A DNA stretch of 64,000 nucleotides, taken from an uncultured Chloroflexia bacterium (GTDB lineage: Bacteria > Chloroflexota > Limnocylindria > QHBO01). Position 1 is the first letter of the stretch, and each line of letters starts with the position of its first letter. Made by a program: the position numbers and the translations under genes. Shown here one piece after another: positions 8,791-39,596 of this stretch. The stretch is from NCBI GenBank assembly GCA_963771155.1, contig CAVYSK010000013.1, positions 16,919 through 80,918 of the forward strand, written 5' to 3'. The notes beneath the pieces were generated by a model that did not search any database, had not been told where the DNA came from, and worked only from the letters and a program-made list of their open reading frames with translations.

Positions 8791-9949
8791 GCGCCGGCAG
8801 CCTATCACGGGCCTTGAGCGAGCCCGCGGCAGGAGCGAATCGGTCGACGAACCGCGCGCTGGCGCGCCCATCGGACACCGCCAGGTGGCGCTGGACGAAC
8901 GCGTCGTATGCGTCGAGGTCGAAGTCGCCGGACAGGATCGCGGCGGCGACCGCATCGGTGTCGGCCACGTGGGTGCCGATCATGCCGGTGCGGTACTCGA
9001 TGTACATCCCGGGGTCGCGCTCGTACCGCTCGAGGTCGCCCACGATGAGGACGAGCGGACGTCGGAGCAGCGCCCACTCGAATATCGACGAGGAGTAGTC
9101 GGTGACGAGCACGTCGGTGACGGTGAAGACCTCGTTGATCTCGGCGGTGTAGTCGATGACCACGTCATAGCCCGCCGTTGGCGTGGCGGCGGGGTCGAGA
9201 TTCGGGTGGGTCTTGAGCACCAGCGCATGGTCCGCCGGCAGGGCGGCGCGCAGCCGCTCGGCGTCGAAGCCCGGCGGCGGACGCTTCGCCTCGCCGGCCC
9301 CGCGGAAGGTGGGCGCGTACAGCACGACCCTCCGGTCGCGCAGCTGCGGGTAGGCGACGAGCAGCCGCTCGCGCGCGGCGGCTATCGCATCGGCGTCGAA
9401 GAAGAAGTCGGTCCTGGGCGACCCGAGGGCCAGGACACGCTTCATCGGCGTGCGGAGCGCGTACGAGTAGGGACCGCGTGCCGCTTCACCGCCGACCACG
9501 ACGAAGTCGTAGTTGCGGTGCAGGAACCGCCGCTCCGAGGGATGCCGCAGGGCCGGCGCATCGAGCCCGAAGCGCTTCAGGGCGCCGGCCGCGTGCCAGA
9601 CCTGGACGACCGTCGTCTCGGGACGATGCGGAACGACGTGCACCGGGAAGTACGCGTTGTCGATCACGACCAGCCGCGACGTCTGCAGGTAGTAGGCGCC
9701 GCGGACGAGGCGCACGAAGTAGCGCAGCTTTGCGAGCCAGCCATAGCTGTACGGCTCGAGGAGGAAGACGCACTCGACGTCCGGTCGCTGGGTGTGCATC
9801 GCGCGGTGGATGGACGCCAGGTTGCCGTCGAGGACCGGGGTGCGGGCGGTCGCGAACACGACGCGATGGGAATGGAACGGGAAGTGCGCGAAGATGCGCC
9901 CGAGGATGCCGAGCAGCGTGCTCGCCAGCAGGTACTCGAGCCAGCCCAT
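8774..9949 (-). CDS. CDP-glycerol/alditol-phosphate transferase family protein (TagF/TagB-like), paralog 1
   Basis: 391-aa ORF with conserved TagF-family blocks VVQVWHAAGALKRFG, VVLYAPTFRG and VLVTDYSSSIFE. Confidence 0.85.
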   Translation of the reverse strand: MGWLEYLLASTLLGILGRIFAHFPFHSHRVVFATARTPVLDGNLASIHRAMHTQRPDVECVFLLEPYSYGWLAKLRYFVRLVRGAYYLQTSRLVVIDNAYFPVHVVPHRPETTVVQVWHAAGALKRFGLDAPALRHPSERRFLHRNYDFVVVGGEAARGPYSYALRTPMKRVLALGSPRTDFFFDADAIAAARERLLVAYPQLRDRRVVLYAPTFRGAGEAKRPPPGFDAERLRAALPADHALVLKTHPNLDPAATPTAGYDVVIDYTAEINEVFTVTDVLVTDYSSSIFEWALLRRPLVLIVGDLERYERDPGMYIEYRTGMIGTHVADTDAVAAAILSGDFDLDAYDAFVQRHLAVSDGRASARFVDRFAPAAGSLKARDRLPAHVHHE

Positions 9950-11502: not shown

Positions 11503-13155
11503 GTGCCAGACACGGACGCGCCGAAGCCGACCGCGGACGGGCCGACTGGCCCGAGGGTCGCGCTCGCCGCCATCGGGTGGGAGCGCAGTCCAGCTCGTGC
11601 TGACCCTGCGCGTCGATGGCGCCGACTCCGTGTCGGACCCTCACCTGCACCGCGAGGTCGCGGTGGACCGGGAACCGCCGGCACCCATGCCCCCGACCTG
11701 GAGCGGTCGCGGCGACGGCGGCCGCACGTCCTTCGGTTCAACATCATGCTCGGGCCGAGGCAGGCACCGTTGGCACCGGGCAGGTGGGCACTCATGCACC
11801 GGCCATCGGATGGCGAGCCCGTTCCGCTCATCGTGGCCGGTGCCGACCCGATCGAGGTCTTCCTGGCCGAGCGCACGTTCCGTCACCGCGGCGGGTGGCA
11901 CCGCATCGTCCCGGCGGTCGAGCGCGACTCCGGGATCCTGCGTCTCGAGATCGTCCGTCGCCGTCGTCGCGGTCGCCGGCGGCCGTGGTACCGCCGCCTC
12001 CGACCGTCGTGGGCGACCCCGTCCGGAATCCGCCGCCGCGTGTTCGCCGCCCTGCTCGCCTGGCACCGCGCCACCGGCGGGCGGAACGGACACCGAATCG
12101 TATTCACCTCCGACTCGCACGCCGCCTTGACCGGCAACCTCGCCGTGGTTCACGACCGGATGGTCGCGCGCGGGCTCGACCGCGACTACGAGCTGACGAC
12201 GATCTTCAAGCCGAGCGTGACCGCGAGCCGCAGCTGGGGCGACCGATGGCGACTGCCTCGGCTCCTCGCGCAAGCCGACGTGATCCTCCTCGACGACTAT
12301 CAGCCGGTCATCTACCGCCTGCCATCCGACCCCAGCCAGCGGATCATCCAGCTGTGGCACGCATCTGGGGCCCTCAAGACGGTCGGCTACAGCCGCGTCG
12401 GGAAGCCGGGCGGGCCGAGCCCGTACTGGCGCCGCCACAAGAACTACACCTTCGCCATCGTCAGCGGCCAGCACGACGTCCCGTACTACGCCGAGGCGTT
12501 CGGCCTGCCCGAGGAGCGAGTCGCGCCCACCGGCATCCCGCGCATGGACCGCTTCTTCGACGAGCAGCAGCGCGCCGCCGGGCGGGAGGCGGCGATGGCC
12601 GCGCTGCCATCGATCGCGGGGCACCGGGTAATCCTGTTTGCGCCGACATTTCGGGGGCATGGTCCGCGCGACGCCTGGTACGACTACGATCGGGTGGACT
12701 GGGCCGGTCTGCACACCGCAGCCACCGCGTGCGACGCGGTGGTGATCGTGAAGATGCATCCGTTCGTCAGTGAGCCGGCGCCGATCCCGAACGCCCTCCG
12801 TGACCGGATCGTCGACGCCACCAAGACGGCGATCGACGTCAACGACCTGCTCTTCGCGGTCGATCTGCTCGTCACCGACTACTCCTCGATCGTGTTCGAG
12901 TTCTCCACCCTGCTGAAGCCGATGCTCTTCTTCGCGTACGACCTGGAGGAGTACGTCGCCAGCCGCGACTTCTACGTCCCGTTCGAGGAGTTCGTCCCCG
13001 GCCGCATCGCGCGCACGTTCGATGAGGTGCTCGACGCGATCCATAACGACGCCTACGACCAGGACAAGGTCGCCTCATTCGCGCGTCGCCACTTCGACCA
13101 CCTCGATGGCAGCGCCACGGACCGTGTCATCGACGAGCTGATCATCGCCCGGTGA
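11503..13155 (+). CDS. TagF-family polyol-phosphate transferase, paralog 2, with N-terminal extension (internally frame-switched segment)
   Basis: C-terminal 380 aa carry TagF blocks IIQLWHASGALKTVG, VILFAPTFRG and LLVTDYSSIVFE. GTG 11503 lies 7 nt after a TATCAT box (leaderless-type). Codon bias moves to another frame between about 11584 and 11736 and then returns, although the ORF stays open. A conservative start is ATG 11746. Confidence 0.75.
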   Translation: MPDTDAPKPTADGPTGPRVALAAIGWERSPARADPARRWRRLRVGPSPAPRGRGGPGTAGTHAPDLERSRRRRPHVLRFNIMLGPRQAPLAPGRWALMHRPSDGEPVPLIVAGADPIEVFLAERTFRHRGGWHRIVPAVERDSGILRLEIVRRRRRGRRRPWYRRLRPSWATPSGIRRRVFAALLAWHRATGGRNGHRIVFTSDSHAALTGNLAVVHDRMVARGLDRDYELTTIFKPSVTASRSWGDRWRLPRLLAQADVILLDDYQPVIYRLPSDPSQRIIQLWHASGALKTVGYSRVGKPGGPSPYWRRHKNYTFAIVSGQHDVPYYAEAFGLPEERVAPTGIPRMDRFFDEQQRAAGREAAMAALPSIAGHRVILFAPTFRGHGPRDAWYDYDRVDWAGLHTAATACDAVVIVKMHPFVSEPAPIPNALRDRIVDATKTAIDVNDLLFAVDLLVTDYSSIVFEFSTLLKPMLFFAYDLEEYVASRDFYVPFEEFVPGRIARTFDEVLDAIHNDAYDQDKVASFARRHFDHLDGSATDRVIDELIIAR

Positions 13156-14321
13156 GCGCGCTCGTCGTCGTCATTCGCACCTGGCTGGTCCGCATCGGCT
13201 TCGCGCTCGGCTCGATGGGTCCGACGCCGCGGCGCGTCCTCATCGCGACCGCCCACGCGGATCGCCCGGCCGGCAACCTCGCGGCGATCCGGCGCGAGCT
13301 GGCCTCGCGGCATCCAACGGTGTCGGTGCGCGTCCTTGCCCATCGGACGAGCGGCGGCTGGGGTGGCCGGCTGGCCGGTGCGGTGGCCGCGGTCCGGGCC
13401 GGATACGCGATCGCCCGGGCGCGGGTGATCGTGATCGACGACTACTTCTTCCCGCTGTACGTCGTGTCCCCGCGTCCGGGGACCACGGTCCTCCAAACCT
13501 GGCACGCGTCGGGTGCCTTCAAGCGGTTCGGCCACAGCGTACGCGACGCGACCTTCGGCGCCGATGCGGCCCTCACGCAGCGCGTGCGGATCCACGCCAA
13601 CTACGACGTCTGCCTCGTCGGCTCGGCCGAGGCGGCACCCTGGTACGCAGAGGCGTTCGGGCTGCCGCTCGACCGATTCCGCTGGGATCTCGGCATCCCC
13701 CGCACCGATCCGCTCGTCGACCCGGATGGGAGGGCCGCGGCCGAGCGCCGCGTCCGGGAGCGCCATGGCATCCCCGACGGCCGCCAGATCATCCTCTGGG
13801 CGCCGACGTTCCGAGGCGACCGGGTTACCGACGCCCGCGATCCCGGGGCCCTGGACCTCGCGCGGATCGCATCGGTGCTCAGCGACGACTACGTGCTGCT
13901 GCTCCGCCTCCATCCCTTTGTTCGGGCCTCGACGCCGGTTCCGGCGGAGGCGGCAGGGTTCGTGCGCGACGCGAGCGGCGACGCGGACATCAACGAGCTG
14001 ATGCTGGCGGCCGATGTGCTCGTCACCGACTACTCGAGCCTGATCTTCGAGTACAGCCTGCTCGAGCGGCCGATGGCGTTCTTCGCGCCCGACCTCGAGG
14101 CCTACGAGCGAGAGCGAGGGTTCTACGTCGACGTCCGGAGCTGGGTCCCGGGTCCGGTGTTCACCACCACCGACGAGCTCGCGTCCTGGCTGCGCCACGG
14201 CACGCCGGATCTCGATCGCGTGCGACGCTTCCGAGCGTCCGCGTTCGCCGTGGCGGACGGCAGGGCAACCGAGCGGGTCGTCGACCGCGTGATCGTCCCC
14301 GGGCTCGATGCCCCCGGCTGA
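13152..14321 (+). CDS. TagF-family polyol-phosphate transferase, paralog 3
   Basis: 389-aa ORF with blocks VLQTWHASGAFKRFG, IILWAPTFRG and VLVTDYSSLIFE. Its start overlaps the paralog 2 stop. Confidence 0.85.
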   Translation: MSALVVVIRTWLVRIGFALGSMGPTPRRVLIATAHADRPAGNLAAIRRELASRHPTVSVRVLAHRTSGGWGGRLAGAVAAVRAGYAIARARVIVIDDYFFPLYVVSPRPGTTVLQTWHASGAFKRFGHSVRDATFGADAALTQRVRIHANYDVCLVGSAEAAPWYAEAFGLPLDRFRWDLGIPRTDPLVDPDGRAAAERRVRERHGIPDGRQIILWAPTFRGDRVTDARDPGALDLARIASVLSDDYVLLLRLHPFVRASTPVPAEAAGFVRDASGDADINELMLAADVLVTDYSSLIFEYSLLERPMAFFAPDLEAYERERGFYVDVRSWVPGPVFTTTDELASWLRHGTPDLDRVRRFRASAFAVADGRATERVVDRVIVPGLDAPG

Positions 14322-17213: not shown

Positions 17214-17771
17214 ATGGCATCTTCGCCGGCCGCCGACGACCTCGGCGGCCGGTTCGTCGTCCTCTCCATCCCCGACGACGCCCTGGTCGTGCTCATCGGC
17301 ATCGCCGGCAGCGGCAAGTCCACGTTCGCGGCGCGCCACTTCGGCCCGACCGAAGTGCTCTCGTCCGATGCCATGCGGGCCATCATCGCCGATGACCCGC
17401 ATGCCCAGGGTGCCACCGACGACGCGTTCGACCTCCTGCATCGCCTGCTCGCGATGCGTCTGCGCCGGGGTCGGCGGACCGTCGTCGACGCCACGAACGT
17501 CGAGGGCTGGGCACGCGGGCAGCTGGTCGAGATCGCCCGCCGCCATCGCCGCCCGGCCGTGGCGATCGTGCTGGACGTGCCGATCGAGGTCGCCATGGAA
17601 CGCAACCTGGCACGGCCTGAGCCGCGGCCCCCGAACGCGGCGCTTCGACGCCAGCACCGGTGGCTTCAGCAGACGCTCCGCGAGCTCCCGGATGAGGGCT
17701 TTGCCGCCGTCCACCATCTCCGCGGGCCGGCGGAGATCGACGCGGTGCGCATCGAGCGGCAGAGGCGCTAG
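17214..17771 (+). CDS. AAA_33-type ATP-binding protein (polynucleotide-kinase-like P-loop kinase)
   Basis: ATG 17214. Walker A GIAGSGKST and VVDATN motif. Size and layout resemble stand-alone Pnkp-type kinase domains. Confidence 0.75.
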   Translation: MASSPAADDLGGRFVVLSIPDDALVVLIGIAGSGKSTFAARHFGPTEVLSSDAMRAIIADDPHAQGATDDAFDLLHRLLAMRLRRGRRTVVDATNVEGWARGQLVEIARRHRRPAVAIVLDVPIEVAMERNLARPEPRPPNAALRRQHRWLQQTLRELPDEGFAAVHHLRGPAEIDAVRIERQRR

Positions 17772-17779
17772 ACCCGCCC

Positions 17780-18046
17780 GGGCACGACGAAATGTCCCGA
17801 AGGAACAAGGCGGCCGACCTCGGTGACCGAAGCCACCGGTGCCGTCCGGTTCCTTCGGCCGAAGCCTCCGGACCCGGTCCCGGAACTCATGATCGAAATC
17901 GTGTGATCCGGTGTCGCTTGCCCCTTCGGGACGACCTCAGTATCGGGTCGCGGCCAGACGAGACGCAATACCGGTTATCCCCGAGATTGCGAGCCCGGGG
18001 CGGAGCTGTCCACAGCCCATCCACGACGGGCCCGGCAGCGCCGCGG
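17780..18046. repeat. 267-nt structured dispersed repeat, copy 1 (candidate ncRNA or MITE-like element)
   Basis: Identical to 38962..39228 at 265 of 267 positions by manual alignment, in the same orientation. Intergenic and dense with internal helices and UUCG/GNRA-like loops. The internal ORFs are not protein-like. Confidence 0.9.
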
Positions 18047-19005: not shown

Positions 19006-20133
19006 GTGACACGAGCGCGCGAACTCGGCATCCGCATCGGCCGCATGGAGCCAGGACCGATGAACGCGATCACCGACGTCGCCGGTGTGCGCGTCGGCCA
19101 CACGACCCTGATCCGTGGCGAAGGACCCCTCCGCGTGGGCGAGGGACCGGTCCGCACCGGCGTGACGGTAGTCATTCCGCACGACGGCGCGATCTGGACC
19201 GAGCCCGTCTTCGCCGGAGCGCATCGGCTCAACGGGAACGGCGAGCTGACCGGCCTTGAGTGGATCCGCGAGCACGGGATGCTGGCCGGCGCGATCGGGA
19301 TCACCAACACCCACAGCGTCGGGACGGTCCGCGACGGGCTGATCGAGGCCGCGGTGGGTGTCCGGGGCGGCCGCGACGACTTCTGGGCGCTCCCCACCGT
19401 CGGCGAGACGTACGACGGGGCCTTGAACGACCTGAACGGCTTCCACGTGAGGCCGGAGCACGTGCATCAGGCGCTGGCTGCCGCCTCTGCCGGGCCGGTG
19501 AGCGAAGGCAACGTTGGCGGCGGGACCGGGATGATCTGCCACGAGTTCAAGGGCGGCATCGGCACTGCCTCGCGCCGGGCCGGCGACTGGACGGTCGGAG
19601 TCCTCGTCCAGGCGAACTACGGGGCTCGCGAGCTGCTGCGGATCGACGGCGTCCCGGTCGGTCGTGCGATCCCGACCGCCGATGTCCCGTCGCCGTGGGA
19701 CGAGGTCGACGCGATCAACGAACGAGCGTCGGCCGAGGGGGGATCGATCATCGGGATCGTCGCGACCGATGCGCCGCTTCTTCCGCACCAATGCGCGCGG
19801 CTGGCCCAGCGGGTCGGGATGGGTCTGGCCCGCATGGGCAGCTATGCCTCCCATGGGTCGGGGGACTTGTTCCTCGCCTTCGCAACCGGCAACCGCGATC
19901 TGTCACGGCGGGCCGGCGAGGACGACCCGCGCCCGACGGTCGGCCTGCGAATGGTCGTCGACCAGCAGATCAACCCGCTGCTCGAGGCAACGGCCGAGGC
20001 GACGGAGGAGGCGATCACGAATGCCCTGCTCGCGGCCGAGACAATGACCGGGCGCGACGGCATCACGGCCCATGCCCTTCCACACGACCGGCTGGTCGAG
20101 GTGATGCGCGACCACGGTCAGCTGGCGGATTGA
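19006..20133 (+). CDS. P1/S58 family peptidase (DmpA-like aminopeptidase)
   Basis: GTG 19006 gives VTRARELGIRIGRMEPGPMNAITDVAGVRVGHTT, a typical DmpA N-terminus. GGTGMICHEFKGGIGTAS contains the self-processing/nucleophile region. Confidence 0.85.
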   Translation: MTRARELGIRIGRMEPGPMNAITDVAGVRVGHTTLIRGEGPLRVGEGPVRTGVTVVIPHDGAIWTEPVFAGAHRLNGNGELTGLEWIREHGMLAGAIGITNTHSVGTVRDGLIEAAVGVRGGRDDFWALPTVGETYDGALNDLNGFHVRPEHVHQALAAASAGPVSEGNVGGGTGMICHEFKGGIGTASRRAGDWTVGVLVQANYGARELLRIDGVPVGRAIPTADVPSPWDEVDAINERASAEGGSIIGIVATDAPLLPHQCARLAQRVGMGLARMGSYASHGSGDLFLAFATGNRDLSRRAGEDDPRPTVGLRMVVDQQINPLLEATAEATEEAITNALLAAETMTGRDGITAHALPHDRLVEVMRDHGQLAD

Positions 20134-20291
20134 CCGCGGGAGACCCGGGGGGCGGCGATTGGCCCCCCTCTAAGACCGTGAGCGCTGGCGGCGCCCTACG
20201 TCACTTGACGTAGATGGATCTGCGCCCAACGTCCCTTTCACTACGGTCCGGCTGGAGCGAAAGTATGTACAACCCAACCTCCCTCCAGGTG

Positions 20292-20330
20292 AAAGCCCCG
20301 TCAGGCCCCGAGCAGCCGAGACGGGGCTTT
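20292..20330. terminator. possible bidirectional intrinsic terminator hairpin
   Basis: AAAGCCCCGTC...GACGGGGCTTT, an 11-bp GC-rich stem (extendable by an inner GGC/GCC) flanked by AAA/TTT, sited between convergent genes. The U-tract is only 3 nt. Confidence 0.35.
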
Positions 20331-20502
20331 CGCCGTGCCTGGCGATCGGCCGACGAGGAAGTGCGGCGCGACCCACGCCCCTGGGCCGCGCCGCCACGCC
20401 GTGGAACGACGACGAGGAGGGTTCACCGACGGCGGCTCCGTGGGTCCGCCGACACCGCGAACCTGCCTCGTGTTGTCCATACCCGGTGCGCCCGGGAAAC
20501 GT

Positions 20503-38961: not shown

Positions 38962-39228
38962 GGGCACGACGAAATGTCCCGGAGGAACAAGGCGGCCGAC
39001 CTCGGTGACCGAAGCCACCGGTGCCGTCCGGTTCCTTCGGCCGAAGCCTCCGGACCCGGTCCCGGAACTCATGATCGAAATCGTGTGATCCGGTGTCGCT
39101 TGCCCCTTCGGGACGACCTCAGTATCGGGTCGCGGCCAGACGAGACGCAATACCAGTTATCCCCGAGATTGCGAGCCCGGGGCGGAGCTGTCCACAGCCC
39201 ATCCACGACGGGCCCGGCAGCGCCGCGG
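38962..39228. repeat. 267-nt structured dispersed repeat, copy 2 (candidate ncRNA or MITE-like element)
   Basis: Matches 17780..18046 with differences only at 38982 (G vs A) and 39155 (A vs G). Lies between two minus-strand genes. Confidence 0.9.
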
Positions 39229-39235
39229 GCAGCCT

Positions 39236-39397
39236 TCAGACAGAGCGGCGGGTACCGGCGAGACCAAGCAGGCCGCCGGCGAACACCGACAACAGACCGA
39301 TCACCACCATCGCGAGGTTGCCCGCCAGCAGGAAGCCGAGGACGGCGATGACGACGCCGAGAACGATGAGGGTCGCCGAAGCGAAGTTCGTGTACAT
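39236..39397 (-). CDS. small hydrophobic membrane protein (53 aa; below the track length cutoff)
   Basis: Manual translation gives MYTNFASATLIVLGVVIAVLGFLLAGNLAMVVIGLLSVFAGGLLGLAGTRRSV, with two predicted TM spans and GC-rich third positions. Confidence 0.4.
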   Translation of the reverse strand: MYTNFASATLIVLGVVIAVLGFLLAGNLAMVVIGLLSVFAGGLLGLAGTRRSV

Positions 39398-39596
39398 CGA
39401 TGCAGGGTCGCGGACCTGTGGCGAGGCGTCATCGGGCGTGCGTCGCGAGGGCGGAGCGCAATGCGGCTACGTCGGATGTCGCACCGTCAACATCGGCGCA
39501 TCCGCACTGGTTCGAGATCCCTTCGCGAGCGAGGATGGATCCGCAGGAGTCCGCTCGGGCTCCGCTTTGCCATGACGCTGCCAATCCGGAGGACCG

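Follow-up and report, generated by a model that had tools for sequence, protein, structure and literature searches.

A 64,000-nucleotide (nt) stretch of DNA from an uncultured Chloroflexia bacterium (assembly GCA_963771155.1, contig CAVYSK010000013.1, positions 16,919 to 80,918; the whole stretch is called the window here) contains two nearly identical copies of a 267-nt intergenic element. Our searches show that this element belongs to a multi-copy family that is restricted, as far as they reached, to Candidatus Limnocylindria (Chloroflexota). The family is real, conserved and previously undescribed, and its members are most likely bacterial small RNA (sRNA) genes. Comparative folding shows that the 3′ 143 nt of each copy correspond to a conserved minus-strand RNA with a predicted four-way junction. 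We consider it probable that each 267-nt copy is a self-contained minus-strand sRNA gene with its own promoter, belonging to a multi-copy Limnocylindria family that is homogenized by gene conversion. According to this proposal, a transcription factor would bind three YGTGGAY-like repeats upstream of a sigma-70-type promoter (-35 TTGCGT, 18-nt spacer, -10 GATACT), which would set +1 on the first base of a closing stem, P1. The resulting 143-nt RNA (17932→17790 in copy 1; 39114→38972 in copy 2) would fold so that P1 joins its ends and encloses three UUCG-capped hairpins, with AUUU at its end, and the paralogous units would be homogenized by gene conversion, not by transposition.

The repeat and its family

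A repeat search of the window returned one 267-nt direct repeat, at 17780-18046 and 38962-39228, with 99% identity. Base-by-base comparison located only two differences between the copies (17800 A versus 38982 G; 17973 G versus 39155 A), which bears out a preliminary description of this DNA, made from the sequence alone, that had reported a same-orientation repeat with two differences. That description had also placed both copies between genes, as they are, and had called them less GC-rich than the flanking genes, in agreement with a GC content of 67.4% for the repeat and 64.3% for its RNA part versus 70.2% for the whole window. Identity stops sharply on both sides, and the seven bases outside each repeat end are unrelated between the copies, so that the element, as had been supposed, is no part of a larger segmental duplication. 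The two copies are as follows:

17780-18046, minus strand: copy 1 of the 267-nt tract, holding the candidate regulatory repeats and promoter, the predicted RNA and its U tail, with 10-20 nt extra per side
38962-39228, minus strand: copy 2 of the tract, in the same orientation as copy 1, with two differences and an offset of +21182 from copy 1

Homologs were found by three routes. A 21-mer taken where the repeat is poorest in GC matched 11 loci in seven Candidatus Limnocylindria metagenome-assembled genomes (MAGs), and all 11 carry a homolog that is 79-90% identical over ~247 nt. A 19-mer from another block matched 100 metagenome contigs, mostly from soil; about 88 of these are true homologs with 70-90% identity, and the other 12 were rejected as chance matches that share just the 19-mer and lie inside coding sequence. 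Three further loci, chosen by synteny alone (L112, L113 and L114), also carry the unit. We also trained a covariance model on 59 full-length copies; its 101 hits correspond to one copy at each locus plus the two known from the window, where it detected no third. The search words force invariance in part of hairpin H1 (21-mer set) and in the 5′ strand of P1 (19-mer metagenome set); the copies that are independent of the P1 search pattern are 9 from the genome scan, 5 selected by synteny and the 2 in the window. In alignment A2, 31 of the 101 copies are truncated by the end of a contig, and the breaks fall at many places inside the unit, which suggests that homogenized paralogs break metagenome assemblies.

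No known family accounts for the element. A cmscan run of the whole window against Rfam 15, a check that had been proposed in the preliminary description, gave no hits at gathering thresholds, so the novelty claimed there stands. Permissive thresholds near copy 1 yielded chance matches only (E 3-6), and four other family members had no Rfam hit at E <= 1. The repeat had no blastn match in plasmid and phage collections, its 19-mer core was not found in viral contigs, and ARAGORN detected no transfer RNA (tRNA) or transfer-messenger RNA in the window. A literature search for noncoding RNAs of Limnocylindria or Chloroflexi returned nothing relevant.

A predicted four-way-junction RNA on the minus strand

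The predicted RNA consists of a closing stem P1 of 14-18 base pairs (bp), three UUCG-capped hairpins (H1, H2 and H3) and an AUUU end. Its parts in the window are the following:

17790-17932, minus strand: predicted RNA of copy 1, 143 nt, with its 5′ end at 17932, its 3′ end near 17790 and an AUUU tail
38972-39114, minus strand (39114→38972): predicted RNA of copy 2, with one P1 A-U turned to A.C at 38982
17915-17932, minus strand: P1 5′ strand plus extension, GUCCCGAAGGGGCAAGCG, which pairs with 17794-17812, is identical in all copies and takes part in two invariant G.U pairs
17794-17812, minus strand: P1 3′ strand, ending in UGUUCCUUCGGGAC and followed by AUUU at 17790-17793
17880-17911, minus strand: hairpin H1, CCGGAUCACACGAUUUCGAUCAUGAGUUCCGG, with conserved U.U, A.A and C.A mismatches, a UUCG loop and 6 pairs changed on both sides
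17846-17877, minus strand: hairpin H2, apex GGCUUCGGCC, the most variable arm (own-versus-cross duplex test, p = 1e-7)
17815-17844, minus strand: hairpin H3, apex GGUGGCUUCGGUCACC plus outer stem, with 5 pairs changed on both sides (own-versus-cross duplex test, p = 2e-8)

Single-sequence and comparative folding agree on this architecture. The 143-nt RNA of copy 1 has a minimum free energy (MFE) of -78.6 kcal/mol and a z-score of -5.45; none of 200 shuffled sequences folds as well, and the centroid equals the MFE structure. Averaged base-pair probabilities point to a single robust architecture that is limited to the 3′ half of the unit. Across 49 pairs and 99 distinct sequences, 96.0% of cells are paired, and 14 pairs, covering 66 cells, have changed on both sides. 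These values were reached by none of 500 shuffles, and sliding the partner columns gave only 31-54% pairing. Compensatory pairs are found in H1 (6), H3 (5) and the two helices of H2 (3), with none in P1. Some members are without H2 and would form a three-way junction instead.

P1 (GUCCCGAAGGGGCA / UGUUCCUUCGGGAC) is a long-range stem with two invariant G.U pairs, and its 5′ strand is also identical in the pattern-independent copies, namely the 9 genome-scan copies that reach P1 and the 5 synteny-selected ones. One of the two differences between the window copies, 17800/38982, sits in the P1 3′ strand (U to C on the minus strand) and leaves an A-U pair in copy 1 and an A.C mismatch in copy 2, at a pair that is A-U in 80 of 83 family cells. 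Each P1 strand is also quasi-palindromic by itself: GUCCC-GAA-GGGGC at RNA positions 1-13 (window 17932-17920) and GUUCC-UUC-GGGAC at RNA positions 127-139 (window 17806-17794). Such strands are predicted to allow two local hairpins that may rival the long-range stem; the hairpin on the 3′ side, together with AUUU, could serve as a terminator before P1 forms.

The transcribed strand, which the preliminary description had left unresolved, can now be assigned. RNAalifold gives -71 kcal/mol for the minus strand versus -47 kcal/mol for the plus strand. Read on the plus strand, the same pairs are paired in 83.2% of cells versus 96.0% on the minus strand, and the 538 G.U cells stand against 24 A.C cells, so we conclude that the minus strand is transcribed. 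Most of the plus-strand helices proposed earlier find no support in the family. In the 10-bp helix 17797-17806/17849-17858, an arm of H2 is matched to the P1 3′ strand, and this helix is restricted to the present lineage because H2 is variable. The helix 17964-17969/17986-17991 and the hairpin at 18005-18016 lack family support and lie in the half of the unit without covariation, and the terminal pairing 17780-17789/18024-18033 is sequence-specific, with no covariation across the family. The hairpin at 17821-17838 did point to a genuine feature, since it mirrors the supported apical stem of H3, although the real helix is on the minus strand.

The strand asymmetry also bears on whether the element acts as RNA at all. 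If it were purely a DNA-level element, a cluster of protein-binding palindromes whose RNA-like fold is incidental, one could understand why both P1 strands are palindromic in DNA (GTCCC-N3-GGGRC), why P1 never covaries and why the 5′ half behaves like DNA sites. The compensatory changes in H1-H3 and the excess of G.U over A.C, however, fit only one strand of one polarity, and the z-score of -5.45 for the 143 nt likewise speaks for an RNA; we regard a DNA-only element as extremely unlikely.

Candidate promoter and repeats in the upstream half

The remaining 5′ half of the unit behaves differently. Single-sequence folds, a helix finder run on alignment A1, averaged pair probabilities and duplex tests revealed no consistent or covarying helix there. 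Own-versus-cross duplex tests of six pairs of 5′-half segments gave p values of 0.1-0.7, compared with 1e-7 and 2e-8 for the H2 and H3 controls, and the 102 nt that precede P1 are no more stable when folded than their shuffled versions (z = -0.32 versus -5.45 for the 143-nt RNA). A coding function was rejected, as the 5′ half has no 3-nt periodicity and single-base indels occur in it.

Among 85 distinct rows of the alignment, the 5′ half consists of invariant blocks separated by spacers that vary in sequence and are fixed in length. The family pattern reads TTG(C/t)G(T/c), 18 variable columns (17 in few rows), nA(T/c)ACT, exactly 6 nt, and then the first base of P1. The TTG of the -35 element is present in 85 of 85 rows, as are the A, A and T of the -10 element, and three YGTGGAY-like repeats precede the -35. 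The corresponding features are:

17939-17944, minus strand: candidate -10 hexamer GATACT, 6 nt from the first paired base of P1
17963-17968, minus strand: candidate -35 hexamer TTGCGT (TTG in 85/85), 18 nt upstream of the -10
17975-17984, minus strand: invariant block 3, TCGGGGATAA, which abuts the -35 upstream and reads TCGTGGACAA in L112, the motif of blocks 1 and 2
18006-18026, minus strand: blocks 1 and 2, a direct repeat TCGTGGAUG…CUGUGGACAG with an 11-nt period; candidate transcription factor site, with no RNA covariation
39121-39208, minus strand: putative promoter region of copy 2 (-10 at 39121-39126; -35 at 39145-39150; block 3 at 39157-39166; blocks 1 and 2 at 39188-39208)

We infer from this pattern that the upstream ~100 nt contain a sigma-70-type promoter with +1 at the first base of P1 (17932), and the YGTGGAY-like repeats are probably bound by a transcription factor. 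The second difference between the window copies, 17973/39155, lies where the family sequence varies, between block 3 and the -35. Upstream of block 1 the sequence is unrelated between genomic contexts, which implies that whatever drives expression must lie inside the unit. The noncoding RNA that the preliminary description had drawn over the full 267 nt thus stands for ~143 nt, which are RNA-like; the other ~100 nt look like promoter or regulatory DNA.

Other readings of the upstream blocks were tried and rejected. A sigma-54 promoter (GG-N10-GC) has the wrong spacing, and in an extracytoplasmic function (ECF)-type promoter (GGGGAT-N17-GTC) the -10-like part would be conserved in just about half of the members. 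Elsewhere in the window the tandem-repeat motif has no convincing site, with 5 matches at <=3 mismatches versus 1.9 expected by chance.

It is also conceivable that the whole ~250-nt unit is transcribed, from an outside promoter or through processing, and that its 5′ half serves as a single-stranded protein-binding domain with CsrB-style GGA repeats. The 5′ blocks are conserved as strongly as the RNA, the 5′ half holds repeated GUGGAY/GGGGAU motifs, the promoter hexamers are weak compared with the consensus, and in methyltransferase-context loci a co-oriented small gene stops 2-20 nt before the unit, from which read-through would be possible. Yet each genomic context would need a promoter of its own despite the precise boundary of the unit, given that the upstream sequences are unrelated between contexts and the neighboring gene is usually divergent. 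The invariant TTG-N18-A.A.T with its fixed 6 nt to P1 would otherwise be hard to explain, the spacers keep their length and not their sequence, as they do in promoters, and the 5′ half folds like shuffled sequence. For these reasons we judge transcription of the whole unit unlikely and prefer an sRNA gene that starts at P1 behind its own promoter.

The small gene mentioned above encodes a predicted membrane protein of 54 amino acids (aa) at 39237-39398 (minus strand) in the window and has orthologs in L010, L050, L056 and L091, where it likewise ends 2-20 nt before the unit. A TAGC that recurs just upstream of the unit in this context is explained by the TAG stop codon of that gene.

Two sets of loci carry additional conserved sequence upstream of the unit. 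In seven loci (L005, L011, L009, L083, L029, L006 and L028), a near-consensus divergent promoter, TTGACA-N17-CATAAT, lies ~30-60 nt upstream on the opposite strand and fronts MarR and MFS genes. Its spacer contains the palindrome ATGGT-N7-ACCAT, which looks like a MarR autoregulatory operator adjoining the upstream repeats of the RNA gene. In about 25 loci with a divergent EamA gene (e.g., L008, L092, L075, L017 and L023), there is an extra conserved extension 10-45 nt upstream of block 1: CATCGGTCAAACGTC, next a short hairpin with a seemingly covarying stem, and then TTCGTGAG(G/A)T. This extension may combine the EamA promoter (TTGACC, other strand) with a further regulator site.

Genomic contexts of the family

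Open reading frame (ORF) calls around the 101 copies revealed at least 10 recurrent neighborhoods. One consists of a convergent P-loop kinase gene followed by a PPi-phosphofructokinase gene; others have divergent EamA, MFS and MarR genes, and further ones contain genes for a methyltransferase, an S58 peptidase, TypA, alpha/beta hydrolases or DUF1761 proteins. Transposase, reverse transcriptase, Cas and integrase genes, of which none had been noticed near the window copies, are absent from the recurrent neighborhoods of all 101 copies, and ~100 flanks contain no transposase, TnpB or IscB gene. As the preliminary description had also stated, the copies are not flanked by a target-site duplication: the seven bases next to their ends have nothing in common. 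The sole candidate for terminal inverted repeats matches 17780-17789, at 8 of 10 positions, to a segment that lies 24-33 nt in from the opposite end, and it falls outside the family-conserved block.

A synteny test free of ascertainment was made by picking loci via homologs of the neighboring kinase (71-77% identical) and then inspecting the contigs. In each of the three contigs so picked (L112, L113 and L114), kinase gene and unit face each other tail-to-tail. A second unit is found ~8.5 kb away in L112 and L114, beside amidohydrolase, methyltransferase and MarR genes, an arrangement that mirrors copy 2 of the window. Since these contigs carry the unit at matching places, both window sites are old syntenic positions, and no empty orthologous site was seen among close relatives (kinase >= 71% identical). 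In L112 a called 441-aa methyltransferase gene (19025-20350) overlaps the second unit (19093-19346), and this gene call is probably over-extended across the unit.

These contexts weigh heavily on the second half of the earlier proposal of a novel noncoding RNA or non-autonomous mobile element. Its first half is upheld by the lack of an Rfam match, the conserved family and the covariation-backed fold. A mobile element, whether MITE-like (miniature inverted-repeat transposable element) or derived from IS200/IS605, with a recent second insertion in the window, would fit the 99% identity and sharp boundaries of the copies, a multi-copy family with 31 of its 101 copies truncated at contig ends, as is frequent in repeats, and the quasi-palindromic P1 strands, which resemble the subterminal hairpins of IS200-type elements. 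Against it stand the unrelated flanks without target-site duplication, the 8-of-10 terminal pairing that falls outside the conserved unit, the flanks free of transposase, TnpB and IscB genes, and the lack of a HEARO or IS605-associated Rfam hit. Both window sites, moreover, are occupied at the same syntenic position in other genomes, and between-species copies have diverged with compensatory changes, a pattern that implies purifying selection on an RNA. We therefore consider mobility very unlikely.

Gene orientation argues against a shared leader. For 64 copies the sequence extends at least 400 nt downstream; the first gene on that side is convergent in 36 of them, and in 10 it is co-oriented and lies within 150 nt. 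Upstream sequence is at hand for 80 copies, and in 55 of these the nearest gene there is divergent. These proportions rule out a shared leader, as the preliminary description had argued from the two window copies. A cis-regulatory RNA (riboswitch or leader) that controls the adjacent gene could draw on the ability of the P1 3′ strand to form a local hairpin followed by UUU, like an aptamer with its expression platform, and on the copies that do have a co-oriented gene within 150 nt. Those genes, however, come from unrelated families, the nearest downstream gene is mostly convergent, and most loci are without a suitable downstream gene; copy 1 ends 18 nt from the stop codon of a convergent gene. 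The chance that the element is a cis-regulator thus appears minimal, and a stand-alone sRNA gene accounts better for these contexts.

Near-identity of paralogous copies

If the copies did not arise by recent transposition, their near-identity calls for another explanation. The pairwise identities of the units are:

Window copy 1 versus window copy 2: 99.2%
L112a versus L112b: 98.8%
L114a versus L114b: 96.8%
Window copy 1 versus L112a or L113a (same kinase context): ~77%
L112a versus L113a (same context, different genomes): 91.7%

Within-genome paralogs are thus 97-99% alike and orthologs ~77%, and the tract of identity coincides with the unit; in L112 it measures 267 nt and reaches only ~5 nt past the unit. 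From these patterns we infer gene conversion (concerted evolution) with the whole gene unit as the tract, which explains the 99% identity better than transposition does. Both window copies are closest to methyltransferase-context copies (85-88%), and kinase-context copies are mostly 72-82% identical to them. Copy 1 therefore appears to have been replaced by sequence of the copy-2 type.

Separately from the element, the window contains direct 121-nt segments at 12835-12955 and 13986-14106 and an inverted one at 8997-9143, which are ~70% similar and probably represent paralogous coding segments.

The neighboring kinase gene and a possible function

The gene that lies tail-to-tail with copy 1 encodes a stand-alone 185-aa homolog of the kinase module of the RNA-repair enzyme Pnkp, without phosphatase and ligase domains:

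17214-17771, plus strand: Pnkp-type kinase gene, protein P0001 (AAA_33, E 2e-28; PDB 4gp6, E 5e-40; TIGR04075, E 3e-56)
L112 10001-10561, L113 4967-5527 and L114 10001-10558: homologs of the kinase gene

The protein covers positions 3-170 of the TIGR04075 (bacter_Pnkp) profile, and the PDB entry 4GP6 is identified in PMC11571804. In the window and in L112-L114, the kinase gene always has a PPi-type phosphofructokinase gene as its neighbor and the RNA unit in tail-to-tail orientation. The arrangement of kinase gene and RNA unit recurs in 17-20 family loci in addition to L112-L114, all inside one class, so that the synteny fits a functional link and shared inheritance alike.

The RNA is predicted to have no long single-stranded stretch, its loops are all UUCG caps, and its best-conserved parts are P1 with its tandem G.U pairs and the mismatched H1. 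With low certainty, the most likely role suggested by these features is that of a stable RNA that binds protein or serves as a scaffold, and not that of a regulator working by base pairing. One may speculate further that it is the cofactor, decoy or substrate of a pathway for RNA end healing or repair around the Pnkp-type kinase, with a regulator acting on the YGTGGAY repeats, although we would call this a long shot.

Weighing the evidence and comparison with known systems

Several observations weigh against the proposal of a self-contained, homogenized sRNA gene. The 5′ end, the 3′ end and the expression of the RNA are predictions. P1 has zero covariation, and part of its constancy among the metagenome copies stems from the search pattern. 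The U tail of the RNA is just 2-4 nt long. The hexamers fit the consensus at 3/6 and 4/6 positions (7/12 in total), and a consensus promoter and terminator scan of both strands called neither. Gene conversion was deduced from identity patterns in 3-5 genomes, and other pairs of paralogs are just 72-93% alike, so that homogenization is not universal.

The nearest parallels are multi-copy, regulator-controlled sRNA genes such as Qrr1-5, RsmX/Y/Z and CsrB/C, of which RsmX/Y/Z and CsrB/C have upstream activating sequences. These systems and the present family have in common several paralogous sRNA genes per genome, compact promoters of their own (a candidate one here), a conserved upstream repeat motif and a stand-alone position between unrelated genes. 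There is, however, no sequence or Rfam relation to them; the predicted RNA has UUCG caps instead of GGA motifs or seeds and a closed four-way junction, and its host belongs to an uncultured class of Chloroflexota. GGA in hairpin loops, which characterizes CsrB and RsmZ, does not occur: the loops are UUCG in all three hairpins, and the GGA-containing repeats lie in the unstructured upstream half.

Y RNAs and the bacterial YrlA are Ro/Rsr-associated RNAs encoded near RNA-repair genes such as rtcB. In them, as in the RNA with the ends predicted here, the 5′ and 3′ ends lie in a long conserved stem with a short U tail. The predicted RNA starts with GUCCCGAAGG, which resembles the GGUCCGAAGG of human Y1, and one family locus adjoins the gene of an RNA-repair-type enzyme, the Pnkp-like kinase. 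Even at E <= 10, however, there is no match to the Rfam families Y_RNA or YrlA, P1 is without a bulge, and neither a bulged Ro-binding helix nor a tRNA-like module is present. The apex of H1 is not a T-loop, because its N(UUCG)N′ loop-closing pair covaries. No rsr/TROVE gene was seen in the flanks of the family loci that we examined.

Repeats of the ERIC/IRU, BOX, Correia and REP/BIME types occur in tens to hundreds of copies at variable sites, often with terminal inverted repeats and target-site duplications. The present units share with them a short length, multiple copies, a high degree of structure, an intergenic location and a tendency to break assemblies. They differ in that each genome has few of them, located at fixed syntenic sites, and that unstructured promoter-like DNA makes up half of each unit. 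The omega RNAs and HEARO elements of IS200/IS605 offer no closer match, as no tnpB or iscB gene was found in the flanks and no Rfam model matched. The identity patterns are instead reminiscent of concerted evolution in ribosomal RNA, tRNA and sRNA genes, with paralogs at 97-99%, orthologs at ~77% and a tract limited to the gene unit; here it is deduced from those patterns and is not universal in the family, in which some pairs of paralogs are 72-82% alike.

Significance

Soils and fresh water harbor abundant Limnocylindria (formerly Ellin6529/CSP1-4), an essentially uncultured group from which we know of no described regulatory RNAs. They now gain a well-supported structured RNA family of ~100 members, in which three helices covary, the strand is defined, the ends are predicted, and there are candidates for the promoter and a regulator site. 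The family is suited for submission to Rfam, and a model of it would improve the annotation of MAGs, in which the repeats break assemblies and draw spurious ORF calls such as that of the L112 methyltransferase. As far as the identity patterns go, it also provides a clean bacterial example of concerted evolution among sRNA genes. Finally, the family raises a testable link to a Pnkp-type RNA kinase. If that link is true, the kinase-linked RNA would be the Chloroflexota counterpart of the Y RNA-Rsr-RtcB arrangement and would represent a new class of repair-associated noncoding RNA, and a dedicated regulator at the YGTGGAY repeats would control the several homogenized gene copies.

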